From a virus (taxonomy: Duplodnaviria; Heunggongvirae; Uroviricota; Caudoviricetes), in the IMG/VR virus record IMGVR_UViG_2711768166_000003: a stretch of DNA of 37,277 bases, one strand, 5' to 3'. A program made the translations under genes and the position numbers. A model generated the notes under the pieces. It ran no database searches. It was not told the DNA's origin and saw nothing but the letters and a program-made list of their open reading frames with translations. Positions 1,764 to 17,248 of this stretch are shown here, one piece after another (within the stretch, counting starts at the first letter, position 1; the number at the start of each line of letters is the position of its first letter).

Positions 1764-3347
1764 TTGTTATTCAAAGGAACAAGACAATTGAACACTTTCA
1801 TATTCAGAAATAATGATGAAATCGGGAAGTTAGAGGCAGAATCAGACAATTACTTAGACTCATGTTTTTTAGAGACAAACATATTCAAAGGTATTATGAA
1901 CTTTGATCCATCTGAGAAAAATCCAGATTTTACGAAAAGAATCATCGTTGGAAGAACTGGTAGCGGAAAGTCAGCGATTTTAAGGAAGATTATCGACGAA
2001 GAAAGCATAAAGTTTTCTGATAAGATTGAAGCAGAAAACACTATTTTTGAACATGTTAAAAACAATGTCTTTATTTCATCCCTAAATGATAGTGGAATTG
2101 ACTTGAGAGTTTTTTATAAGTCTTTATGGTTACATGCGCTACTAATAAAAGTCATTCCAGCCTTACATCGGTCAACTTATCAAAGCTTTTTTAATAAAAT
2201 TCAAGACTTAATTGGTGGGAAAAAGAAGTCATATAATCCAGAGTTGGCAAATGAATATATCGAACAATTTAAGGACGTATTTTTTAATGACAAGGCTTTA
2301 GTGGAAATAAGCAACAAAATGCAGAGTGAATTATCTTCTAAGATAGGTATAAAAGGTATAGATCTTGGAGGTAAACTTGGTCGCGAAGACACTCAGAAAG
2401 TGCAGTCTGAAACATCCAGTTATGTAAGCAGAGAGTTAATCAGAAAACAAAAGGAATTAATAAAAATATTAAATGAAGAGTTTTCTGAAGTTGGACAGTT
2501 TAGGATAGTTATAAGCATTGATGATCTTGATCGTTCTTGGCTGAGCTCTAGCGATATAAGATATGATTTTATAAATGCACTATTAGAAGCATTTAGGGAG
2601 TTACTTGACGTCAAGTCAGTTAAAATATTAATTTCGATTAGAACTGATATACTAATGGGTATTTACAATAAAACATTAAGGCAAGATGAGAAGGACCAGT
2701 CTCTTATTTATCCTGTATCTTGGAATAAATCAGAGATCCGAGAAATAATTGACATGCGTATTAATCACTTAATTAAAAATAAATATCAAAGCTCTCGCAC
2801 TATTACAATGAAAGATATTTTCAATTTTGAAATTGATAACGTATATGCAGATGATTATATTTTAGACAGAACAATGTTAAGACCTAGAGATGCAATAAGT
2901 TTTGTAAATTATTGCTTAAAGGAGTGTGATGGGCACGTAAGTATTAATCAAGATATAGTTTTAATGGCAGAAGAGAAGTTTTTTTCTTCTAGGAAAAGAG
3001 CATTGGTGTCGGAATGGGGAACTATTTACAAAAATATTTCAGGTTACATAGACGCCTTATCTTTGTTGGAAAAACATGAATTTTCATTAGAATCAATTGG
3101 AGACGATAATAAAAATGACATTCTAACTTATATTCTTGATAGAGTTCCATCAGATATCGAAGATGATTTACACTCCAAAATAGTAATGAACTTTGATGAA
3201 TTAATAAAAGTATGGTTTATTGTTGGAATTATAGGGATAAAGAGGACTGAAACCTTAATAATATACTCTTCATATGATAAACCCGATCTTGATATCACTG
3301 ATATCAAACGCAACTTCGTCATTCATCCTTTGTTTAATAGAAGATGA
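1764..3347 (+). CDS. AT-rich cargo P-loop NTPase, KAP-like (Walker A GRTGSGKS, Walker B VISIDDLDR); candidate defence ATPase
   Basis: 527-aa ORF; Walker A near residue 63 and hhhhDDLDR Walker B near residue 250 (long A-to-B spacing as in KAP NTPases), further ISIRTD and LRPRDA motifs. Sits between att and int. Start uncertain: track start is TTG at 1764; first in-frame ATG is at 1896; a TATAAT hexamer lies at 1755-1760. Confidence 0.7.
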   Translation: MLFKGTRQLNTFIFRNNDEIGKLEAESDNYLDSCFLETNIFKGIMNFDPSEKNPDFTKRIIVGRTGSGKSAILRKIIDEESIKFSDKIEAENTIFEHVKNNVFISSLNDSGIDLRVFYKSLWLHALLIKVIPALHRSTYQSFFNKIQDLIGGKKKSYNPELANEYIEQFKDVFFNDKALVEISNKMQSELSSKIGIKGIDLGGKLGREDTQKVQSETSSYVSRELIRKQKELIKILNEEFSEVGQFRIVISIDDLDRSWLSSSDIRYDFINALLEAFRELLDVKSVKILISIRTDILMGIYNKTLRQDEKDQSLIYPVSWNKSEIREIIDMRINHLIKNKYQSSRTITMKDIFNFEIDNVYADDYILDRTMLRPRDAISFVNYCLKECDGHVSINQDIVLMAEEKFFSSRKRALVSEWGTIYKNISGYIDALSLLEKHEFSLESIGDDNKNDILTYILDRVPSDIEDDLHSKIVMNFDELIKVWFIVGIIGIKRTETLIIYSSYDKPDLDITDIKRNFVIHPLFNRR

Positions 3348-3477: not shown

Positions 3478-4605
3478 TTACCACGCTACCTTGCTCCATC
3501 CTTTGCCTCGATCGTCATGATAACGATCGGTTTGTTGTTGCGTTTTATGGCCAAGTAGTTTTTGTGTGTCTACCCCCTGTTCTTTGTACAGACGTTCAGA
3601 TAAAGACCTTTGTTCATGGAATGTTGCTGGTGAGCCATTACCCCAGTCAATTTCTGCCAAATCTCTCGCTCTACTAAAATTCGTCGTCAATGTATTGGAT
3701 TTAACCTGCGCGCCACGTTCAGCCTGTGAAGTGGTACGAAAAAAATGCACAAGGTATGGGCTGACTGCATAGTCACGGCAGCGGGCGACTACATCGCGTA
3801 AACTCCAGTTAATTGCATTGAGGCGAAGGGAAAGCGGGATGGCGATTTTGCTCCCGGTTTTTTCTTGGATGACGTGAAGATGATCATCCCAAATATCGCT
3901 AAATTTCATTTTGGATATATCTCCCAAACGCTGCCCAGTGACCAAAGCTAGGAGCATGGCATTTCCCATGTAACGATGACTGGCGTCTGCTATATCGAAT
4001 ATTTTTTGCCATTCTTCCAGGCTGAGGCGTTGACGGGTAATTTTTCTTTTGGGTTGCTTCGTCGCAAGAGCAGGGTTATACCCTGGCGGAACTTCGCCAT
4101 AATGCTGTGCTTCCTTAAACACATCGATCAATACAGACCTAACGACTTGGGCCATTCTAGGCTGTCCAGCTGCAATATACTCATCAAGCAATTGTGCTAT
4201 ATCTCTAACATCAACGGATGAGATCAACTTCATTCCTGCTCGTTCTCTGAGCAAGGATACTGGTTTAGCTTTTTGCTTATAGGTGTTGAGTCTTATATCA
4301 CCACTTTTGAGCCTGTCATCCTGGATCGCTTGATAGCGATCTAACCAGGTTGACGTTGTGATCGCTTTTCCTTTGCTGGTTGCGATCCTATCACTGATAG
4401 CTAGAATCTGCCGGGTTCTTTGCTCAGCCAGACGAGTGTTAGCTTCAGTGGCAATAGCAATAGCTTCAGCTTCATTTGTGCCCAACGAATGAAATTTCCC
4501 GGTCACTGGATGCTTATATCGCCAATAGACTTTATTTACTTTTCTACTATAAAGCGGATACAAGTTAGGTACTGAAACATTATTTTTACGTGGTCTGGCT
4601 GCCAT
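3478..4605 (-). CDS. int: Phage integrase, tyrosine recombinase
   Basis: 375 aa; conserved catalytic elements TGQRLGD (Arg), HEQRSLSERLY (H-x-x-R) and C-terminal TDRYHD (Tyr); adjacent to att and excisionase. Confidence 0.95.
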   Translation of the reverse strand: MAARPRKNNVSVPNLYPLYSRKVNKVYWRYKHPVTGKFHSLGTNEAEAIAIATEANTRLAEQRTRQILAISDRIATSKGKAITTSTWLDRYQAIQDDRLKSGDIRLNTYKQKAKPVSLLRERAGMKLISSVDVRDIAQLLDEYIAAGQPRMAQVVRSVLIDVFKEAQHYGEVPPGYNPALATKQPKRKITRQRLSLEEWQKIFDIADASHRYMGNAMLLALVTGQRLGDISKMKFSDIWDDHLHVIQEKTGSKIAIPLSLRLNAINWSLRDVVARCRDYAVSPYLVHFFRTTSQAERGAQVKSNTLTTNFSRARDLAEIDWGNGSPATFHEQRSLSERLYKEQGVDTQKLLGHKTQQQTDRYHDDRGKGWSKVAW

Positions 4606-7948: not shown

Positions 7949-8641
7949 TTAATTATGTCTCTTAAGGGTTTGCGACTGACTGATTAAGACCTTTCCAAAG
8001 ACCATGAATCGGTGTTCGTTTTCGCTAGTAATTCCCCATTCACGGTAAATCTGGTTATCAGAAATCACCAGCAGTTTGTCAGGAATCATTTGAAGTCTTT
8101 TAACGTATATTTTGTCATCAAAACCAAAGACATATATACCATCACCATCAAACTGATTGATGCTGACATCAACGAAGATGAGATCTCCTGGCTCAATGGT
8201 TGGACACATACTGTCCCCACGAACGTTGATAACTTTGATGTGATTGGCTGGTCGTCCGCCGAACATTGATACAGCATTATCAGTTCTGTATTCGATGGCA
8301 TGAATCACATCAATGACATCACCGCCCTGGATAAGGCCATTTCCCGCACTGGCACTGATATCCAGCATTTCAATACGGAACACATCCTTCACCTGCGCAA
8401 CATCCTCATTATTACTGTTTTTATATACAGTATTACTTTTGAGGGCAGAGGTAAAGAGATCAGCAATATCAACACCTAAGCTCTTGGCAATATTACTCAG
8501 TGTTTGTTCGGTAAATTGTTTTTGCTTACCCGTTTCTAAGCGCGAGATGTTCGCCGCATCTACTCCTATTGCTTCAGCGAGATCGGCGATTTTCATGTTC
8601 TTCGCTTGGCGAAGTTGTCTGACTCGGTTTCCTATGTTCAT
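7949..8641 (-). CDS. CI-type prophage repressor (N-terminal HTH, C-terminal S24 LexA-like peptidase domain)
   Basis: 230 aa; N-terminal XRE-type HTH (KIADLAEAIGVDAANISRLETGK), C-terminal S24 motifs (GDSMCPTI ... KRL); divergent from cro. Confidence 0.9.
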   Translation of the reverse strand: MNIGNRVRQLRQAKNMKIADLAEAIGVDAANISRLETGKQKQFTEQTLSNIAKSLGVDIADLFTSALKSNTVYKNSNNEDVAQVKDVFRIEMLDISASAGNGLIQGGDVIDVIHAIEYRTDNAVSMFGGRPANHIKVINVRGDSMCPTIEPGDLIFVDVSINQFDGDGIYVFGFDDKIYVKRLQMIPDKLLVISDNQIYREWGITSENEHRFMVFGKVLISQSQTLKRHN

Positions 8642-8738: not shown

Positions 8739-8999
8739 ATGCAATCACCATTACGAAATGTGCGTAAGGCGCATGGTTTCACTTTGCAGCATGTTGCTGC
8801 GGGTGTTCAAGTCAATCCAGCGACGTTGAGTCGTATTGAGAGGCTGGAGCAGATTCCATCTATCGAGCTTGCAGAACGTTTAGCCAATTTTTTTAAGGGT
8901 GAAGTCAGCGAAATGCAGATTCTTTATCCGGCACGTTTTCAATCTAGCCAAAATCAGAATGGGTTTAAACCACAGGAACAGGAGGTGAACCGTGGGTAA
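8739..8999 (+). CDS. Cro-like HTH transcriptional regulator
   Basis: 86 aa, XRE-type HTH (HGFTLQHVAAGVQVNPATLSRIERLEQ); GGAGGG RBS; divergent from the repressor. Confidence 0.8.
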   Translation: MQSPLRNVRKAHGFTLQHVAAGVQVNPATLSRIERLEQIPSIELAERLANFFKGEVSEMQILYPARFQSSQNQNGFKPQEQEVNRG

Positions 9000-9549
9000 G
9001 CATCACTGGAAAATAGAAAAACAGCCTGAGTGGTACGTGAAAGCTGTCAGAAAAACTATCGCGGCGTTGCCGGGTGGTTACGCTGAAGCGGCTGACTGGC
9101 TCGATGTAACAGAAAACGCTTTATTCAACCGCCTTCGTGCAGATGGCGATCAGATTTTCCCGCTGGGATGGGCAATGGTTTTACAGCGTGCTGGTGGCAC
9201 TCACTTCATTGCTGATGCTGTGGCGCAGTCTGCAAATGGCGTCTTTGTGTCTCTTCCTGACGTCGAGGATGTGGACAACGCCGATATTAACCAGCGTCTG
9301 CTGGAAGTCATTGAACAGATCGGCAGTTATTCAAAACAGATTCGTTCAGCAATCGAAGACGGTGTAGTGGAACCGCATGAGAAGACAGCAATTAACGACG
9401 AGCTGTATCTCTCAATTTCGAAGCTGCAGGAGCATGCAGCACTTGTCTACAAAATTTTTTGCATTTCAGAAAGTAATGACGCCCGCGAGTGTGCAGCTCC
9501 GGGCGTCGTGGCGTCGATTGCTTCTGGTTGTGGAGAAACTAACGCATGA
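8992..9549 (+). CDS. Phage regulatory protein (CII-like / e14 YmfL-like)
   Basis: 185 aa; GTG start preceded by AGGAGG; position right after cro. Confidence 0.65.
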
Positions 9550-9893: not shown

Positions 9894-10835
9894 ATGAGCA
9901 CTAAATTAACCGGCTATGTATGGGATGGTTGCGCTGCATCAGGCATGAAGTTATCCAGCGTGGCAATTATGGCCCGCCTGGCTGATTTCAGTAATGACGA
10001 AGGTGTGTGCTGGCCATCAATTAAAACCATTGCCCGTCAGATTGGCGCGGGGATGAGTACCGTCAGAACGGCTATCGCACGGCTGGAAGCAGAAGGCTGG
10101 TTAACGCGTAAGGCGCGTCGCCAGGGTAACCGCAATGCGTCGAATGTTTATCAGCTTAACGTTGCGAAGCTTCAGGCAGCGGCATTTTCTCAACTGTCAG
10201 ATTCTGACCCGTCAAAATCTGACGCATCAAAATCTGACCCGTCAAAATTTGATGCGTCGAAATCTGGCAAAAAAGCGGGTTTTCACCCGTCAGAATCTGG
10301 CGGGGATCCGTCAGTAAAATCAAAACATGATCCGTCAGATAAAAAAACTTCTCGTCCGGACGCTTCGCAACCGGACACGCAGACGGCTGAACAGGATTTT
10401 TTAACTCGCCATCCTGATGCGGTTGTATTCAGCCCTAAAAAGCGCCAGTGGGGGACGCAGGATGATTTGACCTGCGCACAGTGGCTCTGGAAAAAAATCA
10501 TCGCCCTGTACGAGCAGGCTGCCGAATGTGACGGCGAGGTGGTTCGTCCCAAAGAACCGAACTGGACAGCCTGGGCAAACGAAATTCGCCTGATGTGTGT
10601 GCAGGATGGTCGTACTCACAAACAAATCTGCGAGATGTACAGCCGCGTCAGCCGCGATCCGTTCTGGTGCCGTAACGTGCTCAGCCCGTCGAAGCTGCGG
10701 GAAAAATGGGATGAGCTTTCCCTGCGCTTATCGCCGTCCGTCAGCACGTACACAGAAAAACGCGAAGACCCGTACTTCAAAGCCAGTTACGACAATGTGG
10801 ACTACAGCCAGATCCCGGCAGGATTCAGGGGGTGA
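9894..10835 (+). CDS. Replication initiation protein (O-like, N-terminal winged-helix DNA-binding domain)
   Basis: 313 aa; N-terminal HTH (WPSIKTIARQIGAGMSTVRTAIARLEAEGWL); internal Ser/Asp/Lys repeat linker encoded by tandem DNA repeats. Confidence 0.8.
   Translation: MSTKLTGYVWDGCAASGMKLSSVAIMARLADFSNDEGVCWPSIKTIARQIGAGMSTVRTAIARLEAEGWLTRKARRQGNRNASNVYQLNVAKLQAAAFSQLSDSDPSKSDASKSDPSKFDASKSGKKAGFHPSESGGDPSVKSKHDPSDKKTSRPDASQPDTQTAEQDFLTRHPDAVVFSPKKRQWGTQDDLTCAQWLWKKIIALYEQAAECDGEVVRPKEPNWTAWANEIRLMCVQDGRTHKQICEMYSRVSRDPFWCRNVLSPSKLREKWDELSLRLSPSVSTYTEKREDPYFKASYDNVDYSQIPAGFRG
10195..10350. repeat. Candidate replication origin: iteron array plus A-rich tract inside the O-like gene
   Basis: Five tandem ~15-bp units (TGTCAGATTCTGAC, CCGTCAAAATCTGAC, GCATCAAAATCTGAC, CCGTCAAAATTTGAT, GCGTCGAAATCTGGC), then further CCGTCAG copies and an A-rich stretch (GATAAAAAAAC). 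Confidence 0.55.
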
Positions 10836-10837
10836 GC

Positions 10838-11326
10838 ATGAGTCTTTTGAATGACGTTCAGAAATTCATTGAAGCCCATCCGGGCTGTACTTCCGGAGAC
10901 ATTGCGGATGCTTTTGCAGGTTACTCACGGCAGCGCGTTCTGCAGTCAGCAAGCAAGTTACGTCAGAGTGGGCGTGTGGCTCACCGTTGTGAAGGAGATA
11001 CACGCAGACATTTCCCGCGCCTGACTGAGAGAGCGCAGGAGCCGGAACCACAACCAGTTCGTGAAACCAGACCTGTGCGCAATTTCTATGTCGGCACTAA
11101 CGATCCCCGGGTGATTTTATGCCTGACCCGCCAGGCTGAAGAACTGGAGTCAAGGGGCTTATACCGTCGTGCTGCAACCGTGTGGATGGCGGCATTCCGT
11201 GAAAGCCACTCCCAGCCAGAACGAAACAATTTTCTGGCACGTCGTGAGCGGTGCTTACGGAAAAGCAGCAAGCGCGCTGCATCGGGTGAAGAGTGGTATC
11301 TGTCAGGGAATTACGTGGGGGCTTAA
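10838..11326 (+). CDS. Hypothetical phage protein (Arg-rich, possible regulator)
   Basis: ATG at 10838 preceded by a GGGGGTGA RBS-like stretch; ends with TAATG overlap to the methylase gene. Confidence 0.55.
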   Translation: MSLLNDVQKFIEAHPGCTSGDIADAFAGYSRQRVLQSASKLRQSGRVAHRCEGDTRRHFPRLTERAQEPEPQPVRETRPVRNFYVGTNDPRVILCLTRQAEELESRGLYRRAATVWMAAFRESHSQPERNNFLARRERCLRKSSKRAASGEEWYLSGNYVGA

Positions 11327-11979
11327 TGAGTAATAAATATTGCCGGGCGCTGGTGGAACTGCGGAACAAACCAGCCCATGAACTGAAGGAAGTGGGCGAT
11401 CAGTGGCGCACGCCGGATAACATTTTCTGGGGAATTAACACCCTGTTTGGCCCGTTTGTCCTGGATCTGTTTACTGACGGTGATAACGCCAAATGTACCG
11501 CGTATTACACGGCGGAAGACAACGCGCTGGCGCATGACTGGTCAGAACGTCTTGCGGAGCTTAAAGGTGCTGCCTTTGGTAATCCCCCATACAGTCGCGC
11601 CAGTCAGCATGAGGGGCAATACATCACCGGCATGCGTTACATCATGAAACATGCCGGTGCCATGCGTGATAAAGGCGGGCGCTATGTTTTCCTGATCAAA
11701 GCTGCCACCAGCGAAGTGTGGTGGCCGGAAGATGCAGACCATATTGCTTTTATTCGCGGGCGTATTGGTTTTGAACTGCCTGCCTGGTTTATCCCGAAAG
11801 ATGAGAAGCAGGTGCCGACAGGCGCTTTCTTCGCTGGTGCTATTGCTGTTTTCGACAAGACCTGGAAGGGACCGGCAATCAGCTACATCGGGCGCGATGA
11901 ACTTGAGGCATGTGGTGAGGCCTTTCTGGCGCAGGTTCGCCAGCAGGCGGAAAAACTGGTCAGGGAGATGGCGGCATGA
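11326..11979 (+). CDS. Phage DNA N6-adenine methyltransferase (Dam-type orphan methylase)
   Basis: Catalytic motif IV FGNPPYS; upstream DQWRTPDNIF and LDLFTDG motifs typical of the phage Dam family; start at the MSNKY Met. Confidence 0.85.
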   Translation: MSNKYCRALVELRNKPAHELKEVGDQWRTPDNIFWGINTLFGPFVLDLFTDGDNAKCTAYYTAEDNALAHDWSERLAELKGAAFGNPPYSRASQHEGQYITGMRYIMKHAGAMRDKGGRYVFLIKAATSEVWWPEDADHIAFIRGRIGFELPAWFIPKDEKQVPTGAFFAGAIAVFDKTWKGPAISYIGRDELEACGEAFLAQVRQQAEKLVREMAA

Positions 11980-12302
11980 CGACGTTAACTCAATGCCAGC
12001 AGCAGGTGCTGGATATGCTGATTTCTTACCAGAAAGAACGTGGCTTCCCGCCAACCAATCAGGAGGTGGCAACCATGCTGGGATACCGTTCAGTGAATGC
12101 AGCGGTGGAGCATCTTCGCGCACTGGAGAAAAAAGGCGTCATCACGATAAAGCGTGGCGTGGCCCGGGGGATCACGCTTCATACCGCAGTGAAGGACGAC
12201 GACAGCGAAGCGGTCGGTATCATCCGCGCACTGCTTGCCGGTGAGGAGAACGCTAGGTTGCGTGCAGCCCACTGGTTACATGAGAGGGGCCTGAAAGTAT
12301 GA
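11976..12302 (+). CDS. LexA-type DNA-binding domain protein
   Basis: 108 aa; ERGFPPTNQEVATMLGYRSVNAAVEHLRALEKKGVITIKRGVARGI resembles the LexA N-terminal winged helix; no peptidase domain. Confidence 0.7.
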   Translation: MTTLTQCQQQVLDMLISYQKERGFPPTNQEVATMLGYRSVNAAVEHLRALEKKGVITIKRGVARGITLHTAVKDDDSEAVGIIRALLAGEENARLRAAHWLHERGLKV

Positions 12303-12688
12303 AGTTGATCCTTCCTTTCCCGCCCAGTGTGAACACGTACTGGCGACACCCCAACAAAGGGGCATTTGCTGGTAAGAGCCTGATAAGCGAGGCGGGGCGA
12401 AAATTTCAGAGCGCGGCGTGCGCAGCAATAGTTGAGCAGTTACGTCGTCTGCCGAAACCAACGTCGGCACCTGCTTCAGTGGAGATCGTGTTGTTTCCTC
12501 CGGATAACCGGATCCGCGATCTGGACAACTATAACAAGGCGCTGTTTGACGCCCTGACCCACGCGGGTGTGTGGGAAGACGACAGTCAGGTGAAAAGAAT
12601 GCTGGTGGAGTGGGGACCGGTTATCCCGGAAGGGAAGGTTGAGATCACTATCAGTAAGTACGAGAAACCGGCGGGTGCAGCCGCCTGA
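12299..12688 (+). CDS. rusA: Holliday junction resolvase RusA
   Basis: LPFPPSVNTYWR ... RDLDNYNKALFDALTHAGVWEDDSQV are characteristic RusA motifs; 129 aa. Confidence 0.9.
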   Translation: MKLILPFPPSVNTYWRHPNKGAFAGKSLISEAGRKFQSAACAAIVEQLRRLPKPTSAPASVEIVLFPPDNRIRDLDNYNKALFDALTHAGVWEDDSQVKRMLVEWGPVIPEGKVEITISKYEKPAGAAA

Positions 12689-12707: not shown

Positions 12708-13505
12708 ATGAATAATCTGATGGTCATTGATGGTATTGAAGTTCGTCGTGATGCTTATGGTCGTTACAGCCTGAACGATCTGCACAGGGCTGCCGATTCT
12801 CTGGATAAGCATAAGCCTGCATTCTGGCTCCGCAATGAGCAAACTGAACGTTTAATAAGCGAGTTGCAGATTTGCAACTCGGTCAATATAGAGCCAGTTA
12901 ACGTTATTCGTGGCGGAAATAACCAGGGGACGTATGTCTGCAAAGAACTGGTGTATGCCTATGCAATGTGGATCAGCCCGTCATTCCATCTGAAGGTGAT
13001 CCGTACTTTCGACATGGTAACCAGCGCACCTGAAAAATTATCCGGACAGGCTGCTGACAAGATGCAGGCTGGCGTGATTCTGCTGGACTTTATGCGCCGG
13101 GAGTTAAATCTGTCTAACTCTTCAGTGCTTGGAGCCTGTCAGAAACTCCAGGAGGCTGTTGGCTTACCGAATCTGGCACCGCGCTATGCCATTGATGCTC
13201 CTGCTGACGCGCCTGATGGCTCAAGCCGCCCCACGCTGTCACTGAGTGCACTGCTGAAGCAGTATGGTATCCGCCTGACAGCTAATCAGGCATATCACCA
13301 GATGGTGAAGCTGGGGATCGTCGAGCAGCGCGAACGATACAGCCGTACCGCGATTAACAACATCAAAAAATTCTGGTCGCTGACGGCGAAAGGCTGCATG
13401 TTCGGCAAGAACATCACCAGTCCCGCAAATCCGCGCGAGACGCAGCCGCATTTCTTCGAATCCCGATTCCCTGAGCTGTTAAAGCTACTCGATACCGTTC
13501 ATTGA
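12708..13505 (+). CDS. KilA-N domain protein (antirepressor-like)
   Basis: N-terminal IDGIEVRRDAYGRYSLNDLHRAA ... PAFWLRNEQTERLISEL ... GTYVCKELVYAYAMWISPSFHLKV fits KilA-N; AAGAGGAGA RBS. Confidence 0.8.
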   Translation: MNNLMVIDGIEVRRDAYGRYSLNDLHRAADSLDKHKPAFWLRNEQTERLISELQICNSVNIEPVNVIRGGNNQGTYVCKELVYAYAMWISPSFHLKVIRTFDMVTSAPEKLSGQAADKMQAGVILLDFMRRELNLSNSSVLGACQKLQEAVGLPNLAPRYAIDAPADAPDGSSRPTLSLSALLKQYGIRLTANQAYHQMVKLGIVEQRERYSRTAINNIKKFWSLTAKGCMFGKNITSPANPRETQPHFFESRFPELLKLLDTVH

Positions 13506-13506
13506 G

Positions 13507-14502
13507 GTGACCGTGAGAGCACTACTGACGCCTGAAATTGCCCCGCGTATGGGGATCGTATTGTTCAGGCCAGGTTCAGAGCTGATGCCCCTGTTTATGC
13601 AGGGGCGTGTCCTGCTGGAGCCAGAGCCGGAACGTTATTCATCTTTCGCCAGTGGTGCCGTTCCGGCGGCATCACAACCGCTGGCGGATGATCCTGCCGT
13701 TCGGACCGTGTTCCGCAATGAGGCAGTGATCCGTCGTGCTGGTGGCGTGGAATGTCTTGAAAGCTGGTTACTTCGTGAAAAGGGCTGTCAGTGGCCTCAT
13801 TCTGACTGGCACAGCGAGAACATGACCACAATGCGGCACGCTCCGGGAGCAATTCGTCTGTGCTGGCACTGCGATAACCAGCTGCGTGACCAGTTCACGG
13901 AACGGCTGGAATCAATGGCAACGGATAACTGTGCCCGCTGGGTGTTGTCTGTCGTGCGTCGGGATCTCGGTTTTGATGACAGTCACGTTGTGACAATGCC
14001 GGAACTGTGCTGGTGGCTGGTTCGTAATGATCTGGCGGATGCCTTACCGGAAAGTGCAGCCCGTAAGGCACTGAGATTACCGAAGCCTGTTGTGCCATCT
14101 GTCACCCGGGAAAGTGACCTTGTGCCTTCGGTTCCTGCCACCAGCATCATCCAGGATAAAGCTAAAAAGGTGCTGGCGCTGAAAGTGGATCCGGAGTCGC
14201 CGGAGTCTTTTATGTTACGCCCAAAACGTCGCCGCTGGGTTAATGAAAAGTACACGCGCTGGGTTAAGACGCAGCCGTGTGCATGTTGTGGAAAGCCTGC
14301 TGATGATCCCCACCATCTGATAGGCCACGGTCAGGGGGGAATGGGTACAAAAGAGCATGATCTCTTTGTGCTGCCTTTGTGCAGAAAGCATCACGACGAG
14401 CTGCATGCGGATACCGTGGCATTTGAAGAGAAGTATGGCTCCCAGCTGGAGTTGATATTTCGTTTTATCGATCGTGCGCTGGCAATTGGTGTGTTGGCCT
14501 GA
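13507..14502 (+). CDS. DUF968-type phage protein (YdfU-like) with C-terminal Cys/His metal-binding motif
   Basis: 331 aa; C-terminal CACCGKPADDPHHLIGHGQGG ... LCRKHHDELH; GTG start. Confidence 0.65.
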   Translation: MTVRALLTPEIAPRMGIVLFRPGSELMPLFMQGRVLLEPEPERYSSFASGAVPAASQPLADDPAVRTVFRNEAVIRRAGGVECLESWLLREKGCQWPHSDWHSENMTTMRHAPGAIRLCWHCDNQLRDQFTERLESMATDNCARWVLSVVRRDLGFDDSHVVTMPELCWWLVRNDLADALPESAARKALRLPKPVVPSVTRESDLVPSVPATSIIQDKAKKVLALKVDPESPESFMLRPKRRRWVNEKYTRWVKTQPCACCGKPADDPHHLIGHGQGGMGTKEHDLFVLPLCRKHHDELHADTVAFEEKYGSQLELIFRFIDRALAIGVLA

Positions 14503-14519
14503 TTTTGTGGAGAAAGTTG

Positions 14520-14876
14520 ATGCGTGATATGTATGAAGTAATGGATCGTTGGGGAGCTTGGGCTGCTTCAGACAATAGCGGAGTGGACTGGCAGCCGATA
14601 GCGGCTGGTTTCAAGGGACTTTTACCTCATGGCAAAAAGTCACGGATTCAGTGTGATGATGACGAAGGCATCATGATAGACAGTTGTGTGGCTCGGTTGA
14701 GAAGGTATAAACCAGAGGAATATGAGCTCATCATCGCCCACTTTGTTATCGGTATCTCATTACGCACTATTGCGAAGAAGAGAAAATGCTCTGATGGCAC
14801 AATTAGGAAGGAACTGCAAACTGCAATGGGGTTTGTTGATGGCTGTTTAGCAATGTTAGCTTATAGTATGGCATAA
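14520..14876 (+). CDS. Late-gene antiterminator Q (QuuD-type)
   Basis: MRDMYEVMDRWGAWAA ... IAAGFKGL ... SRIQCDDDEG ... CSDGTIRKELQTAMGFVDG parallels the recalled QuuD-family sequence; start at ATG 14520 after a GGAGAAAG RBS. Confidence 0.85.
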   Translation: MRDMYEVMDRWGAWAASDNSGVDWQPIAAGFKGLLPHGKKSRIQCDDDEGIMIDSCVARLRRYKPEEYELIIAHFVIGISLRTIAKKRKCSDGTIRKELQTAMGFVDGCLAMLAYSMA

Positions 14877-16070
14877 AAAATAAAATAGATTTACTGCCGA
14901 TTTTTCAAAAAAGACTGGGAACTGTTTATATCCAACGTAAATAAGGCCTCCATAAAACATGGCTGATGCGAGATATTTAACAGTTCTCATCCTTTTTTTA
15001 GCTTTATCAATCAAACCTGTAATGCTACTCTTAATACTATCTGCATTATCTTTGATTTCTTTATTTTCTTCAAACTTTAAATACTTATCGAAAGCGGACT
15101 CCACTCGAGAACGTAAGTTGTCGAATGTTTCATTGAATATCTCAATAGAAATGTAATTGACTTTTTTTATCATCCAAAGTCCTGCGATAATCAATATTGC
15201 TTCGGTTGTTTCATTAGCCTTCACTAAGCCACCAGCTGCTATTAATGCACCGGGAATAGTCAATGCTTTTGTCTGATTAGATGATATGAATTCGTTAATT
15301 TTACTCGTGAACTCAAGATTTTTCTCATCGAGTTCGTTAAGAATTTTATTTACAGAAAACCTCTTTGTGTAAATCTCATATAGTTCATCATATTTTTTCC
15401 TGACGAGTTCAGTAGAGTTAAGCAAGTCAAAGAAATTGAACGTACCATTTGCTTTAAATACTTCGTTTATGGCTGAGCGTATAACGAGCTTGCGCTCGCT
15501 TTTGTGTAAATCATTGATTTTTATTGTGTCGAGAAGCTCCTTTACAATTTCATATTTAAGAGACGAGTTCGATAAGCGATTAATCTCGCTATATTGTAAA
15601 AAATGCGTGAGTTCGACTGTATAACTTTTGTCTTCATTGGTGAAAAATAAGACAGAGCAGTCACTGTTATGATGATCAGAAATTAATGAAAGGATATCTT
15701 TCCACATAAAGAAAATATGGATTTTTTCGATGCTTTCATTCTTAGAAGTAGGGAGTATTAACGGCGTTCCGATGATATAATTTTTCGGAAGAGCGTTTTG
15801 GGTGTTTACTCTAGACCAAAAAGACTCAACATTCTCATAAATTATAGCATCATCCCAAGATGAAGCTTGGCGATCTAGCCAAATTTCATTATTTTCGATG
15901 CAGGTTGTTGCCTTTTTATAACCTATAGATTGTAACAGTCTAATTATTTCAGAACTATTTACAATAACAATGCTTTCTTCAAGACTTATGACAGTGTAGT
16001 AGCCCTCAACTCTGCTTGAGGCTCCGTTAATAATCTGCGCTAATCTTGATAAGTCATCAGCAATTGTCAT
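14856..16070 (-). CDS. AT-rich cargo gene B: protein with predicted C-terminal transmembrane helices (candidate effector)
   Basis: 404 aa; hydrophobic segments ALTIPGALIAAGGLV, AILIIAGLWMI and YLASAMFYGGLIYVGY in the last third; start ATG 2 nt after the stop of gene A; 3' end overlaps the Q gene convergently by 21 bp. Confidence 0.75.
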   Translation of the reverse strand: MTIADDLSRLAQIINGASSRVEGYYTVISLEESIVIVNSSEIIRLLQSIGYKKATTCIENNEIWLDRQASSWDDAIIYENVESFWSRVNTQNALPKNYIIGTPLILPTSKNESIEKIHIFFMWKDILSLISDHHNSDCSVLFFTNEDKSYTVELTHFLQYSEINRLSNSSLKYEIVKELLDTIKINDLHKSERKLVIRSAINEVFKANGTFNFFDLLNSTELVRKKYDELYEIYTKRFSVNKILNELDEKNLEFTSKINEFISSNQTKALTIPGALIAAGGLVKANETTEAILIIAGLWMIKKVNYISIEIFNETFDNLRSRVESAFDKYLKFEENKEIKDNADSIKSSITGLIDKAKKRMRTVKYLASAMFYGGLIYVGYKQFPVFFEKSAVNLFYFLCHTIS

Positions 16071-16072
16071 TA

Positions 16073-17248
16073 TTAGCTGTCTCTATATCTTTTGAGTTCA
16101 TCATAATTTGCCTGACTCAATTTTATCACAATTTCGCATTTGTTGTCAGTGAGAATTACAGGCTTATTTGACTTTTCGTCTCCAATAGCTCCACGCATTA
16201 TTTTCAACTTAAAATTATTGTCGTTATCTGCCACTTCAATTGTAAGCGCGCTTTCAGCTGCTTTAGGAGTTGGTTCAAATTGAGGGTCAATCTGGAAACC
16301 ATTAAGATTAACAAAATCGACAAACGTTCCCTTACATTTGTGTGAATCAGTCAGGCATGAGTCAATTATTTTTGAAATATCCTCTATCTTAACGGACTTA
16401 TTTCCGTGTTTATCTTTTGATTTTTTTTCCAGTAAGGATTTAACTTCATTGTCAATAGTATCACGCAGTACACGACCGAGTGAGTTTTTACTAGCAAAAA
16501 TATCTATAGCACTGAATAATTGCTGAATGCTTCTTTTATTGTCCGAATCATGTCGGCAACCTAATGAGTCTTTGAAAAAATCGCTTTTAGATTTACCTTG
16601 CAAGAAATGTACATATGAGTCACCCTTGTTTTCTGGATAACTGGCTTCGAATAAAGTTAAATCGAACATCGCAGCCTGCCGTAAGGCATCGGTATTAATT
16701 GGATTTAATCTTGTTGGGGTCAACTTATCCGAATCAAAGTCATAGGCGCTTTGTTTATCAACCATTACGATTAGAAGTTTCCCCAAATCCTCTGGTTCGG
16801 TAGACTTATAGTGGATGAAAACAACGCTCCCCCCCTGAAGTTGGGCAACTCTCGATTCGTTATTAGCATTATGTTTAAGCTTCTCTATTATAGCTCTAGA
16901 TAAATCAATGAATTCATTATTTTTATTAATGTATTTTTTTAGGATCGTAGGAATGGATGAAGGGTTGTGATCTGAGTCTAGGAAGTTATGAAATTTGTTT
17001 TTTCGGCTAAATTTTTTCTCAATTCTGGTTATGAATTCAGATGTGACTTCATTTTTTAGATCCCAAACTTCACCTAATCGATAATCAAATGCTCTTGAAT
17101 CATTTTTTTCAAGATTTGCTGTTACAGCACCAATAGGAAAGTACGATTGTTTGCCCAGCACTACAACATGAGGCGTGGCACCGCATTTATCGCAAGCTAC
17201 AGTTGGGTCGTCAAGAACATTGCCACATTCTAAACAAGTTATATCCAT
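16073..17248 (-). CDS. AT-rich cargo gene A: N-terminal zinc ribbon plus NA37/YejK-like nucleoid-associated domain
   Basis: 391 aa; N-terminal CLECG-x12-CDKCG; central region aligns by eye to YejK (GGSVVFIHY vs GGFVLFCHY; ...DLT...FL.GK...). Family assignment is from memory, not a search. Confidence 0.7.
   Translation of the reverse strand: MDITCLECGNVLDDPTVACDKCGATPHVVVLGKQSYFPIGAVTANLEKNDSRAFDYRLGEVWDLKNEVTSEFITRIEKKFSRKNKFHNFLDSDHNPSSIPTILKKYINKNNEFIDLSRAIIEKLKHNANNESRVAQLQGGSVVFIHYKSTEPEDLGKLLIVMVDKQSAYDFDSDKLTPTRLNPINTDALRQAAMFDLTLFEASYPENKGDSYVHFLQGKSKSDFFKDSLGCRHDSDNKRSIQQLFSAIDIFASKNSLGRVLRDTIDNEVKSLLEKKSKDKHGNKSVKIEDISKIIDSCLTDSHKCKGTFVDFVNLNGFQIDPQFEPTPKAAESALTIEVADNDNNFKLKIMRGAIGDEKSNKPVILTDNKCEIVIKLSQANYDELKRYRDS

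Follow-up and report, generated by a model that had tools for sequence, protein, structure and literature searches.

T1 Dam, a DNA methyltransferase encoded by a phage, is GATC-specific. The role of phage Dam enzymes has been described in a paper from 2020 as not well understood. Among phage-encoded truncated homologues of LexA, a single one has been characterised, namely gp6 of the Bacillus thuringiensis tectivirus GIL01, which binds the non-SOS palindrome GaCACAnnTGTGaC as an activator of the late promoter P3 (PMC6182141). In LexA itself, the residues that contact DNA are Ser39, Asn41, Ala42, Glu44 and Glu45 (PMC3091678). A Dam-type enzyme and a short LexA-like protein are encoded next to each other in Shigella phage SfV by dam and orf42 (GenBank U82619), in the order perC-like, dam, orf42, rusA, KilA-N, DUF968 and Q. 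The orf42 product is labelled 'unknown' in SfV and 'LexA family transcriptional regulator' in later records, and is sometimes mislabelled as 'SOS-response repressor and protease LexA' or 'RecA-mediated autopeptidases'; a literature search found no study of the SfV orf42 family.

The window analysed here is the whole stretch of 37,277 nucleotides of the IMG/VR record IMGVR_UViG_2711768166_000003, and its host element is a lambdoid prophage of the SfV type. The gene order is identical to that of SfV, and the proteins show no material difference (97.7% identity for Dam and 96% for Orf42). The same module is found in SfII, the cdtI phage, Stx2c, Stx2k and 1720a-02 phages and in E. coli prophages, including the yfdM remnant in CPS-53. 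Neither gene is thus new as a sequence, and both already carry these annotations. Taken as a whole, the account favoured here, which is held tentatively and with somewhat less than even confidence, is that of a stand-alone Dam methylase and a RecA-insensitive LexA derivative, which form two independent cassettes of the early operon.

Gene layout and independence of the two cassettes

Both genes lie on the + strand in the delayed-early (replication-to-Q, 'nin') operon of the prophage, at 11326..11979 and 11976..12302, where the initial annotation had correctly placed them. The features of the locus that are referred to below are as follows:

8413..8432: near-consensus SOS box TACTGTTTTTATATACAGTA, inside the cI-like repressor gene
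10832..11326, + strand: PerC-like (YfdN-type) regulator gene (Pfam PerC, E 7.9e-09; PGAP name 'yfdN: PerC family')
11326..11979, + strand: gene for a phage N6-adenine DNA methyltransferase of the Dam family, 217 aa (SfV dam; PF05869, TIGR01712)
11581..11592, + strand: NPPY catalytic motif IV of the methylase, aa 86-89
11976..12302, + strand: gene for a LexA-derived DNA-binding protein without protease domain, 108 aa (SfV orf42; PHROG 362; PF01726)
11976..12182, + strand: winged helix-turn-helix domain of the LexA-like protein, aa 1-69 (from AlphaFold2, Foldseek and alignment)
12093..12131, + strand: recognition helix of the LexA-like protein, aa 40-52
12198..12284, + strand: C-terminal two-helix tail of the LexA-like protein, aa 75-103 (helices 75-88 and 93-103)
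12299..12688, + strand: gene for a RusA Holliday-junction resolvase (Pfam RusA, E 5e-15)

The reading frames overlap from one gene to the next: the TAA of the perC-like gene overlaps the ATG of dam (TAATG), the dam stop codon overlaps the ATG of the LexA-like gene (ATGA), and the stop codon of the LexA-like gene overlaps the ATG of rusA (ATGA). A Shine-Dalgarno-like GGAG precedes the LexA-like gene. A promoter scan found no sigma-70-like promoter on the + strand between 10.8 and 12.7 kb or at the cI SOS box, and gave no support in the window to the dam promoter that is annotated in SfV; the block without such an internal promoter fits expression from the early operon. The neighbours of the pair encode PerC-like, RusA, KilA-N, DUF968 (HNH-like) and Q proteins, and no restriction endonuclease is among them.

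The profile matches of both genes are well above anything that chance would give. Of 5426 complete E. coli genomes, 2656 carry the pair with 95-100% DNA identity, 50 phage records have it at the same level, and the LexA-like gene is intact in thousands of genomes. A scan of contigs with a degenerate pattern retrieved mostly the host lexA of marine Gammaproteobacteria, and the short family only in Shigella, Citrobacter and Kosakonia, so that it does not serve as a taxonomic survey of the family. Downstream of the LexA-like gene the arrangement is constant, with rusA directly 3' in all 78 IMG/VR loci, and the order LexA-like, RusA, DUF968, Q is conserved. In eight of nine distant relatives rusA follows at once or after one small ORF; the contig of the ninth (L257), at 1.4 kb, is too short for a decision. 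One locus (L254) has the LexA-like gene and lacks rusA, and many prophages carry rusA without the LexA-like gene.

Upstream, dam-lexA-rusA is found in 50 of the 78 loci and perC-lexA-rusA in 27, with identical TAATG and ATGA junctions, so that in the relatives without dam the TAA of the perC-like gene directly overlaps the ATG of the LexA-like gene. SfIV lacks the methylase, and the converse arrangement, in which dam is directly followed by rusA with no LexA-like gene, also occurs (H30). dam is therefore a precise, ORF-sized insertion, and dam and the LexA-like gene are independent accessory cassettes. The initial annotation had called the methylase an orphan, and this agrees with the absence of an adjoining nuclease partner and with the clean gain and loss of the dam ORF, which leaves the neighbours, including the HNH-like DUF968 gene, unchanged. 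The pairing of methylase and LexA-like gene that its title implied is contradicted by the same clean indel, which marks the two as independent modules.

The methylase

The methylase matches the Pfam Dam profile PF05869 with an E-value of 3.9e-45 and 154 bits (cut-off 28.1) over profile positions 3-167 of 169, the NCBIfam profile TIGR01712 (phage_N6A_met) with 251.9 bits (cut-off 97.05) over all positions (1-165 of 165), and PADLOC MTase_II PDLC03263 over its full length. The residues N86-P87-P88-Y89-S90-R91 are invariant in the alignment of methylases, T1 Dam included. The assignment to a Dam-type methylase with an NPPY motif, as originally proposed, is thereby confirmed by both family profiles and by the motif at aa 86-89. 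A sequence search of the PDB yielded no solved relative, and the single-sequence AlphaFold2 model (pLDDT 33) was too poor for use. Judged by its sequence, the protein is an ordinary stand-alone m6A enzyme of the phage Dam family.

Going by reports on other phage Dam enzymes, its target may be GATC-like, though at only 24% identity to T1 Dam over 138 residues the GATC specificity is not transferable with confidence. GATC is not depleted in the window, with 147 sites observed against 145 expected from base composition or 185 from a Markov model. The initial annotation had suggested anti-restriction self-methylation as the function. Since GATC is methylated by the E. coli host in any case and the window is not short of such sites, a purely anti-restriction role is not obvious for an enzyme of this specificity. 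The methylase is presumably produced in lytic growth and would then modify the replicating phage DNA, from which the phage might gain protection against restriction, or against nicks at sites that lack methylation.

The LexA-like protein and its candidate roles

Residues 1-65 of the LexA-like protein match PF01726 (LexA_DNA_bind; E 2.9e-19), and searches against the PDB return chains of E. coli LexA with E-values of about 1e-15; 35 of the first 69 residues (51%) are identical to E. coli LexA. The full-length LexA profile TIGR00498, by contrast, reaches 70.5 bits, under its cut-off of 110.95, and is matched over only positions 1-91 of 203, whereas phrog_362 is matched over its full length, C-terminal tail included (1-106 of 106 positions, E 1.6e-59). 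Pfam finds no Peptidase_S24 match in the protein, and the chain stops at residue 108. In the AlphaFold2 model, which was computed for the monomer only (pLDDT 83), the predicted domain superposes on the LexA DNA-binding domain in 3JSO and 1LEA with an rmsd of 1.0-1.3 A over 67-69 residues (Foldseek), and the predicted tail helices 75-88 and 93-103 have a pLDDT of about 85.

The tail on its own has no match in Pfam and is not covered by any LexA in the PDB, but it is kept in relatives that are down to 40-50% identical, with A97 and L101 invariant, and because it is conserved down to 40% identity it is regarded as a real domain, which may serve dimerisation or partner binding. The initial annotation had described the protein as a LexA DNA-binding domain only, without S24; the peptidase is indeed absent, but a conserved two-helix tail of 35 aa is present in addition to the domain.

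A88-G89 of the LexA-like protein aligns with A84-G85 of LexA and falls within a predicted helix. Relatives in Citrobacter and elsewhere have A-N here, and distant ones lack the pair. As the site is not conserved, a LexA-type cleavage site at A88-G89, by which the protein would act as a substrate or decoy for cleavage in trans, was rejected. Titration of activated RecA was rejected as well, since LexA binds RecA filaments through its C-terminal domain, and this domain is missing here. With neither an S24 protease nor a conserved cleavage site, the protein cannot be inactivated by RecA-stimulated self-cleavage.

Within the syntenic block the LexA-like gene is the most divergent, with 45-52% identity against 64-82% for its neighbours, and its dN is 1.4 to 5 times theirs. 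Where an estimate of its dN/dS could be made, it is about 0.15-0.18, and this value, along with the length and synteny that are kept across the family, shows that the gene is functional and under purifying selection. Fold, domain content, family, synteny, purifying selection and translational coupling to rusA are thus established for the LexA derivative.

At the five DNA-contacting positions of LexA the protein has S39, N41, A42, V44 and E45, so that four of five are kept, and S39, N41 and E45 are retained in every relative with an identity of 82% or more. No member of the short family keeps Glu44, which is V, A, T, F or L instead, and Glu45 is lost in P0086, P0123, P0172 and P0191. The family is variable at positions 42-46 of the recognition helix, which contact bases, and invariant at structural positions, and canonical full-length LexAs mostly have NAAE[EDQS]HL at 42-46. 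The replacement of Glu44 and the losses of Glu45 look like a diversifying DNA specificity rather than faithful mimicry of binding to SOS boxes. The binding to SOS boxes that the initial annotation had suggested is also argued against by the missing dimerisation domain of LexA and by gp6 with its non-SOS palindrome.

In the most distant subclade a near-consensus SOS box heads the unit with the LexA-like gene in four of four loci, just downstream of hexamers that were read by eye as -35/-10-like; one of these units also contains dinI, and another a RecA_C-like ORF. The SOS-headed operons of these distant relatives and the kept contact residues support a putative link to the SOS system. In the window's own clade no SOS box is found upstream of the LexA-like gene, and CTGT/ACAG palindromes with spacings of 0-20 are not enriched in the window. 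The only strong LexA-type site in the window is TACTGTTTTTATATACAGTA (chance expectation about 0.002, by our own estimate), which makes it the only candidate cis target there. This box is present in 80 of 80 loci with the same cI allele, as well as in phiSTEC1575-Stx2k and 1720a-02, and the LexA-like gene is found in 57 of the 61 loci with this allele that extend to rusA. However, the LexA-like gene also accompanies several other immunity types that have no SOS box; the box tracks the cI allele and not the LexA-like gene, so that no link between them can be claimed.

In the favoured account, the LexA derivative consists of the winged-helix domain, a flexible linker and the conserved two-helix tail, and would bind DNA as a dimer joined through the tail, with CTGT-type palindromes that resemble SOS boxes as its sites. 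After the early operon has been switched on it would stand in for LexA in a RecA-insensitive form, and once host LexA has been destroyed its targets could be host SOS boxes, those of co-resident prophages or the one in the phage's own cI. In its most far-reaching form, which we consider rather unlikely to hold as it stands, the Orf42 family would be a RecA-proof LexA substitute, the tail dimer of which re-occupies the vacated SOS boxes after the early or SOS-induced operon has fired and silences the host SOS regulon and the LexA-controlled antirepressors or toxins of rival prophages; in this phage it would also, on the box in its own cI, make induction irreversible. If so, this would be a widespread and overlooked layer of SOS control, as about every second E. 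coli genome and Stx2 phages carry the gene. While the methylase is routine, the LexA-like gene is also carried by serotype-converting Shigella phages and by Shiga-toxin phages, and if its product binds SOS boxes and is uncleavable, induced prophages would rewrite the DNA-damage response of their host, with a bearing on the induction of Shiga-toxin phages, competition between co-resident prophages and SOS-driven mutagenesis under antibiotics.

Alternatively, the LexA-like protein could be a phage-specific transcription factor, the specificity of which has diverged from that of LexA, and which acts as activator or repressor on one or more operators of the phage itself and leaves the host SOS regulon untouched. 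This is on the unlikely side. In its favour, gp6 provides a precedent by its binding of GaCACAnnTGTGaC and activation of P3 (PMC6182141), positions 42-46 vary within the family where canonical LexAs mostly keep their motif, and the LexA-like gene tops the block in amino-acid divergence. On the other hand, no conserved non-SOS palindrome emerged in the window, late control is run by Q antitermination, so that a late activator like gp6 is not needed, S39, N41 and E45 are conserved in the window's clade, and SOS elements dominate the context in the distant subclade.

The protein might instead be a DNA-binding accessory of the adjoining recombination and replication functions (RusA and the DUF968/HNH-like protein), for instance by targeting or restraining the resolvase. 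Such a role is improbable, although the linkage to rusA is the strongest genomic signal of the LexA-like gene: stop and start codons overlap in 78 of 78 close loci, rusA adjoins or lies one small ORF away in eight of nine distant relatives down to 40% identity, and the order of the LexA-like, RusA, DUF968 and Q genes is conserved. In lambda, the gene for the small Fis-like DNA-binding protein NinH adjoins the resolvase gene ninG/rap, which can be counted in favour of this role. However, gene order in the nin region is conserved for many unrelated genes, the LexA-like gene of L254 does without rusA, as many rusA-carrying prophages do without the LexA-like gene, and the sequence gives no sign of a protein-protein contact with RusA.

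That the methylase and its LexA-like neighbour work as a single unit, for example with C-protein-like control of the methylase or with DNA binding that is modulated by methylation, is very improbable. Such a unit would agree with the ATGA overlap of dam and the LexA-like gene in the window. It would also agree with the methyltransferase genes that lie directly 5' of the LexA-like gene in 50 of the 78 close loci and at several of the distant ones. The enzymes are of more than one family: L086 has a Dam, L087 a Dam together with a C5-type enzyme, and L252 a C5/D12 enzyme of 609 aa, and an enzyme of 673 aa is encoded nearby in L089. However, 27 of the 78 close loci, as well as several of the distant ones, have the LexA-like gene and no methylase, dam can precede rusA without a LexA-like gene and is a clean indel between identical junctions, and Dam is about 80% conserved where the adjoining LexA-like protein is about 49% conserved; the slot 5' of the LexA-like gene is more plausibly a hot spot for cassettes that encode methylases. 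Finally, a functionless, decaying remnant of a captured 5' fragment of host lexA is most improbable. The phmmer and NCBIfam alignments do extend into the LexA hinge and cleavage region (VGRVAAGE versus VGIIRALLAGE), as those of a truncated copy would. Against a remnant, length, tail and synteny are kept down to 40% identity, dN/dS is well under 1 where estimable, the gene has a Shine-Dalgarno-like GGAG and translational coupling and is intact in thousands of genomes, and the 'AG' is not conserved, being AN in Citrobacter relatives.

Comparison with known systems

The methylase belongs to the same family (PF05869/TIGR01712) as the phage Dam methyltransferases of T1, HP1 and VT-2, with which it also shares a stand-alone organisation and a location in the phage early region. 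With T1 Dam it has in common the invariant motifs WxTP, LD and NPPYSR. Some relatives carry long C-terminal extensions or fusions to PAPS reductase, whereas the methylase of the window has neither.

The LexA-like protein has the same N-terminal winged helix as E. coli LexA (PDB 1LEA, 3JSO and 1JHH; rmsd about 1.1 A), and the two have S39, N41, A42, E45, K53 and R64-G65-I66 in common. Unlike E. coli LexA, it lacks the S24 protease and dimerisation domain with Ser119 and Lys156, it has Val in place of Glu44, and its two-helix tail stands where LexA has the hinge and cleavage region.

Like the LexA-like protein, GIL01 gp6 is an early product encoded by a phage, with a LexA-type DNA-binding domain and no protease, and each of the two resembles the LexA of its own host (gp6 is 44% identical to B. 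thuringiensis LexA, the LexA-like protein 51% to E. coli LexA). BLASTP gave no alignment between the LexA-like protein and gp6 at E <= 100, and an independent origin of gp6 is concluded from this. gp6 has 66 aa and is tail-less, whereas the LexA-like protein has 39 extra residues with two conserved helices, and the virus type, the host phylum and the logic of late-gene expression, which relies on Q antitermination here, differ as well. If the LexA-like protein were to act on an operator of its own phage instead of SOS boxes, it would be a second, independently evolved case, after gp6, in which a phage uses the LexA head as a private regulator.

The early-right operon and its methylase cassette

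The window is a lambdoid prophage, and 11326..12302, where the initial annotation had placed an orphan Dam-type methylase and a LexA-like gene at positions that match the called ORFs exactly, has a match of 100% identity in the E. coli A42 chromosome. Both genes belong to the early-right operon, which runs from a cII-like gene to Q.

Features of the window
1764..3347 (+), KAP-family NTPase-like gene, and 3478..4605 (-), lambda-type integrase gene
7949..8641 (-), cI-like repressor (HTH and S24 protease)
8413..8432, near-consensus 20-bp SOS box TACTGTTTTTATATACAGTA inside cI, the one outstanding LexA-type site
8992..9549 (+), cII-like, first gene of the early-right operon
9894..10835 (+), replication protein with HTH_36
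10832..11326 (+), PerC-like, directly 5' of dam
11326..11979 (+), Dam
11976..12302 (+), LexA-like
12299..12688 (+), RusA
12708..13505 (+), KilA-N
13507..14502 (+), DUF968/HNH-like
14505..14876 (+), Q, end of the early-right operon
14856..16070 (-) and 16073..17248 (-), two leftward genes between Q and the lysis genes

Starts and stops overlap at perC/dam (TAATG), dam/LexA-like (ATGA) and LexA-like/rusA (ATGA), and a promoter scan found no sigma-70-like promoter within this four-gene block, so that dam and the LexA-like gene are most simply read as part of a delayed-early transcript.

The 217-aa methylase matches Pfam PF05869 Dam (E 3.9e-45), NCBIfam TIGR01712 'phage N-6-adenine-methyltransferase' (251.9 bits; cut-off 97), PHROG 111 and, over its full length, a PADLOC/REBASE-derived Type II methyltransferase model. 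Its NPPY motif occupies residues 86-89, and W27, T29-P30, L46-D47 and N86-PPYSR-91 are invariant in an alignment with T1 Dam and three closer relatives. Identity is only 24% to T1 Dam, 97.7% to the annotated Dam of SfV and about 98% to the Dams of the cdtI and Stx2c phages; relatives occur in 333 phage records, and a PDB sequence search returned no solved relative. The window holds 147 GATC sites and hence shows no avoidance; the E. coli host itself methylates GATC. Judged by its sequence, the methylase is an ordinary, previously annotated phage Dam-family enzyme and an orphan.

The dam ORF is a clean presence/absence cassette. Among 78 related IMG/VR loci with sufficient upstream DNA, 50 have the order perC-dam-lexA-rusA and 27 perC-lexA-rusA, with an identical TAATG junction in both; the methylase of SfII and SfV is reportedly missing from SfIV (PMC3851460), and in some E. 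coli genomes dam is followed directly by rusA, with no LexA-like gene between. Since the neighbouring genes include no nuclease partner and dam comes and goes cleanly, the description of the methylase as an orphan is borne out. The slot directly 5' of the LexA-like gene often holds a methyltransferase, of varying families, and is often empty, so it is read as a cassette hot spot; the methylase and the LexA-like gene are not a functional pair.

Several neighbouring genes deserve mention. The 10832..11326 product is of the YfdN type, with an HTH-like N-terminal region and a PerC domain; prophage-encoded PerC/Pch-family activators control virulence loci in EPEC and EHEC. In one related locus (L005), a deletion has produced a perC'-'dam fusion. 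The two leftward genes occupy a 'moron' slot, which in relatives carries stx or an M.EcoGII-like methylase; one product (404 aa) has no family match, the other (391 aa) matches the NA37 nucleoid-associated family (E 1.2e-23), PADLOC gave no match for either, and the pair may represent cargo or a defence candidate. Absent from the window is a 350-aa DPPY methyltransferase whose gene lies after Q and before the lysis genes in L004 (14030..15082) and about 35 further related loci, with an SOS box, TACTGTAAAAATAAACAGTG, overlapping its first codons. The phage 1720a-02 enzyme (L259:9777..10835) is 81% identical to it and, in the M.EcoGII paper, is described as very similar to M.EcoGII, a non-specific adenine methylase, with no mention of LexA; the SOS box at the methyltransferase start might explain the silence of M.EcoGII in lysogens. 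At the prophage left end, the integrase gene adjoins the KAP-family gene, whose 527-aa product resembles P-loop NTPases and gives weak matches to STAND/AAA.

A LexA head with a conserved helical tail

Residues 1-65 of the LexA-like protein match PF01726, and a gap-free alignment to E. coli LexA spans residues 2-70 (35/69 identical); the lexA equivalog model is covered only at positions 1-91 of 203, with a score under the cut-off, and an S24 domain is missing. Modelled by AlphaFold2 from 18 family members (mean pLDDT 83), the protein folds into three helices with a two-stranded wing (residues 6-68) and, beyond a poorly predicted linker (about residues 70-74), a tail of two more helices (75-88 and 93-103); the 67-69 N-terminal residues fit LexA of the DNA complex 3JSO at 1.0-1.3 Å rmsd. 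The tail has no PDB match and, searched alone, no Pfam match. It is not junk: relatives as distant as 40-50% identity retain it, A97 and L101 never change, and positions 83, 86 and 87 stay hydrophobic. The initial description as 'LexA-DBD-only' was right about a LexA DNA-binding domain without S24, but not about 'only', since a conserved helical hairpin follows. An 'AG' aligned with LexA Ala84-Gly85 was ruled out as a cleavage site because it is 'AN' in Citrobacter relatives and missing further out. Because the isolated N-terminal domain of LexA binds operators weakly, represses well once joined to a dimerisation module, and is removed by ClpXP after cleavage, the tail would matter if it dimerises.

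The family is widespread and already annotated, and literature searches returned no study of it. SfV Orf42 (annotated 'unknown') is 96% identical, PHROG 362 matches end to end, and PGAP uses the name 'LexA family transcriptional regulator' for clusters that hold thousands of sequences. Of 5426 complete E. coli genomes, 2656 match the dam and LexA-like stretch in whole or in part, and 1662 match it over 80% or more of its length; the stretch recurs in the Stx2c, Stx2k and 1720a-02 phages. Among 1.84 billion representative proteins searched, short chains that keep the tail turned up at 40-53% identity (P0123, P0126, P0127, P0131, P0137, P0160, P0172, P0191 and P0230). Proteins from public metagenomes (P0133, P0134, P0148, P0151, P0152, P0157 and P0161) carry tandem LexA DNA-binding domains in a single chain without a protease, which would be a single-chain pseudo-dimer answer to the same problem.

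In the close set, rusA lies immediately 3' of the LexA-like gene in 78/78 loci; on distant contigs the gene again sits in a lambdoid early operon, with 0 or 1 small ORF before RusA-DUF968-Q, the exceptions being L254, where rusA is missing, and L257, for which the contig is too short to show neighbours. The LexA-like gene is the block's most divergent (e.g. 45-52% identity where RusA has 69-78%, DUF968 64-69% and Dam 79-82%); its dN is 1.4- to 5-fold that of the adjoining genes, and its dN/dS, where dS is estimable, is about 0.15-0.18. The gene is therefore functional, though fast-changing or often exchanged.

Links to the SOS circuit

LexA contacts DNA through Ser39, Asn41, Ala42, Glu44 and Glu45 (PMC3091678); in the LexA-like protein the corresponding residues are S, N, A, V and E. 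All family members share K53 and R64-G65-I66, and S39, N41 and E45 are constant in relatives at least 82% identical; position 44 is acidic in no member of the whole family, and Glu45 gives way to G in P0086, D in P0123, L in P0172 and I in P0191. Full-length canonical LexAs mostly keep NAAE[EDQS]HL.

Within the window, TACTGTTTTTATATACAGTA is the only exact CTGT-N8-ACAG with an A/T-rich spacer, and no other CTGT palindromes are enriched. It falls in the cI linker between the HTH and S24 protease domains (codons N-T-V-Y-K-N-S) and tracks the cI allele (80/80 loci with the allele, plus phiSTEC1575-Stx2k and 1720a-02). The LexA-like gene also accompanies other immunity types without the box, so no specific link between the two can be claimed. 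Beside the box, scanning for promoters gave no clear sigma-70 site; an in-frame GVG/ATG with GAGGA lies just 3' of it and could yield a cI fragment of the C-terminal domain only.

In the most distant subclade, all four loci with sufficient upstream DNA (L088:4560, L089:4561, L254:513 and L255:4242) have a near-consensus SOS box (ACCTGTACATTCATACAGTA, TACTGTTTATATATACAGTG, TACTGTTTATTTATACAGTA and TACTGTATAAAAATACAGTT) heading the LexA-like unit, just 3' of -35/-10-like hexamers identified by eye. A conserved 75-82-aa ORF, the LexA-like gene, a conserved 66-67-aa ORF and then RusA, DUF968 and Q follow, except that L254 lacks rusA and L089 has no called 66-67-aa ORF; the unit head includes dinI in L254 and an ORF matching the RecA C-terminal domain in L255. 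The window has no homologues of these partner ORFs. From such SOS-headed units, the LexA-like gene of this subclade is predicted to be LexA-repressed and damage-induced, among known SOS modulators. This context connects the family with the SOS circuit without proving binding to the same boxes, and Glu45 is lost in two of the four proteins. The L088 immunity repressor has no S24 domain, which makes the 75-82-aa ORF a candidate LexA-controlled antirepressor. Two relatives, L027 and L054, each have an SOS box (TACTGTATTTATGAACAGTG) at 10765, in the gap from rusA to a variant KilA-N gene; there the LexA-like-rusA pair seems to be followed directly by a KilA-N/antirepressor-type gene under LexA control.

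The best single guess, held tentatively, is that the LexA-like protein is a RecA-insensitive LexA surrogate, because it joins a LexA head to a two-helix tail without a protease, is tightly coupled to rusA and occurs in SOS-themed contexts. A close rival, somewhat less likely, is that it is a diverged private regulator.

Comparison with GIL01 gp6

Literature searches found a single characterised phage protein of the truncated-LexA kind, gp6 of the Bacillus tectivirus GIL01, which is 44% identical to host LexA and activates the late promoter P3, binding GaCACAnnTGTGaC across its -35 region (PMC6182141). The LexA-like protein adds a variant of the 'truncated LexA homologue' idea and no new kind of system. 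The concept is the same, and each protein is closest to the LexA of its own host; however, the two give no BLASTP alignment, and gp6 lacks the tail that the window protein has. The LexA-like protein is an independent capture of a LexA head, apart from gp6.
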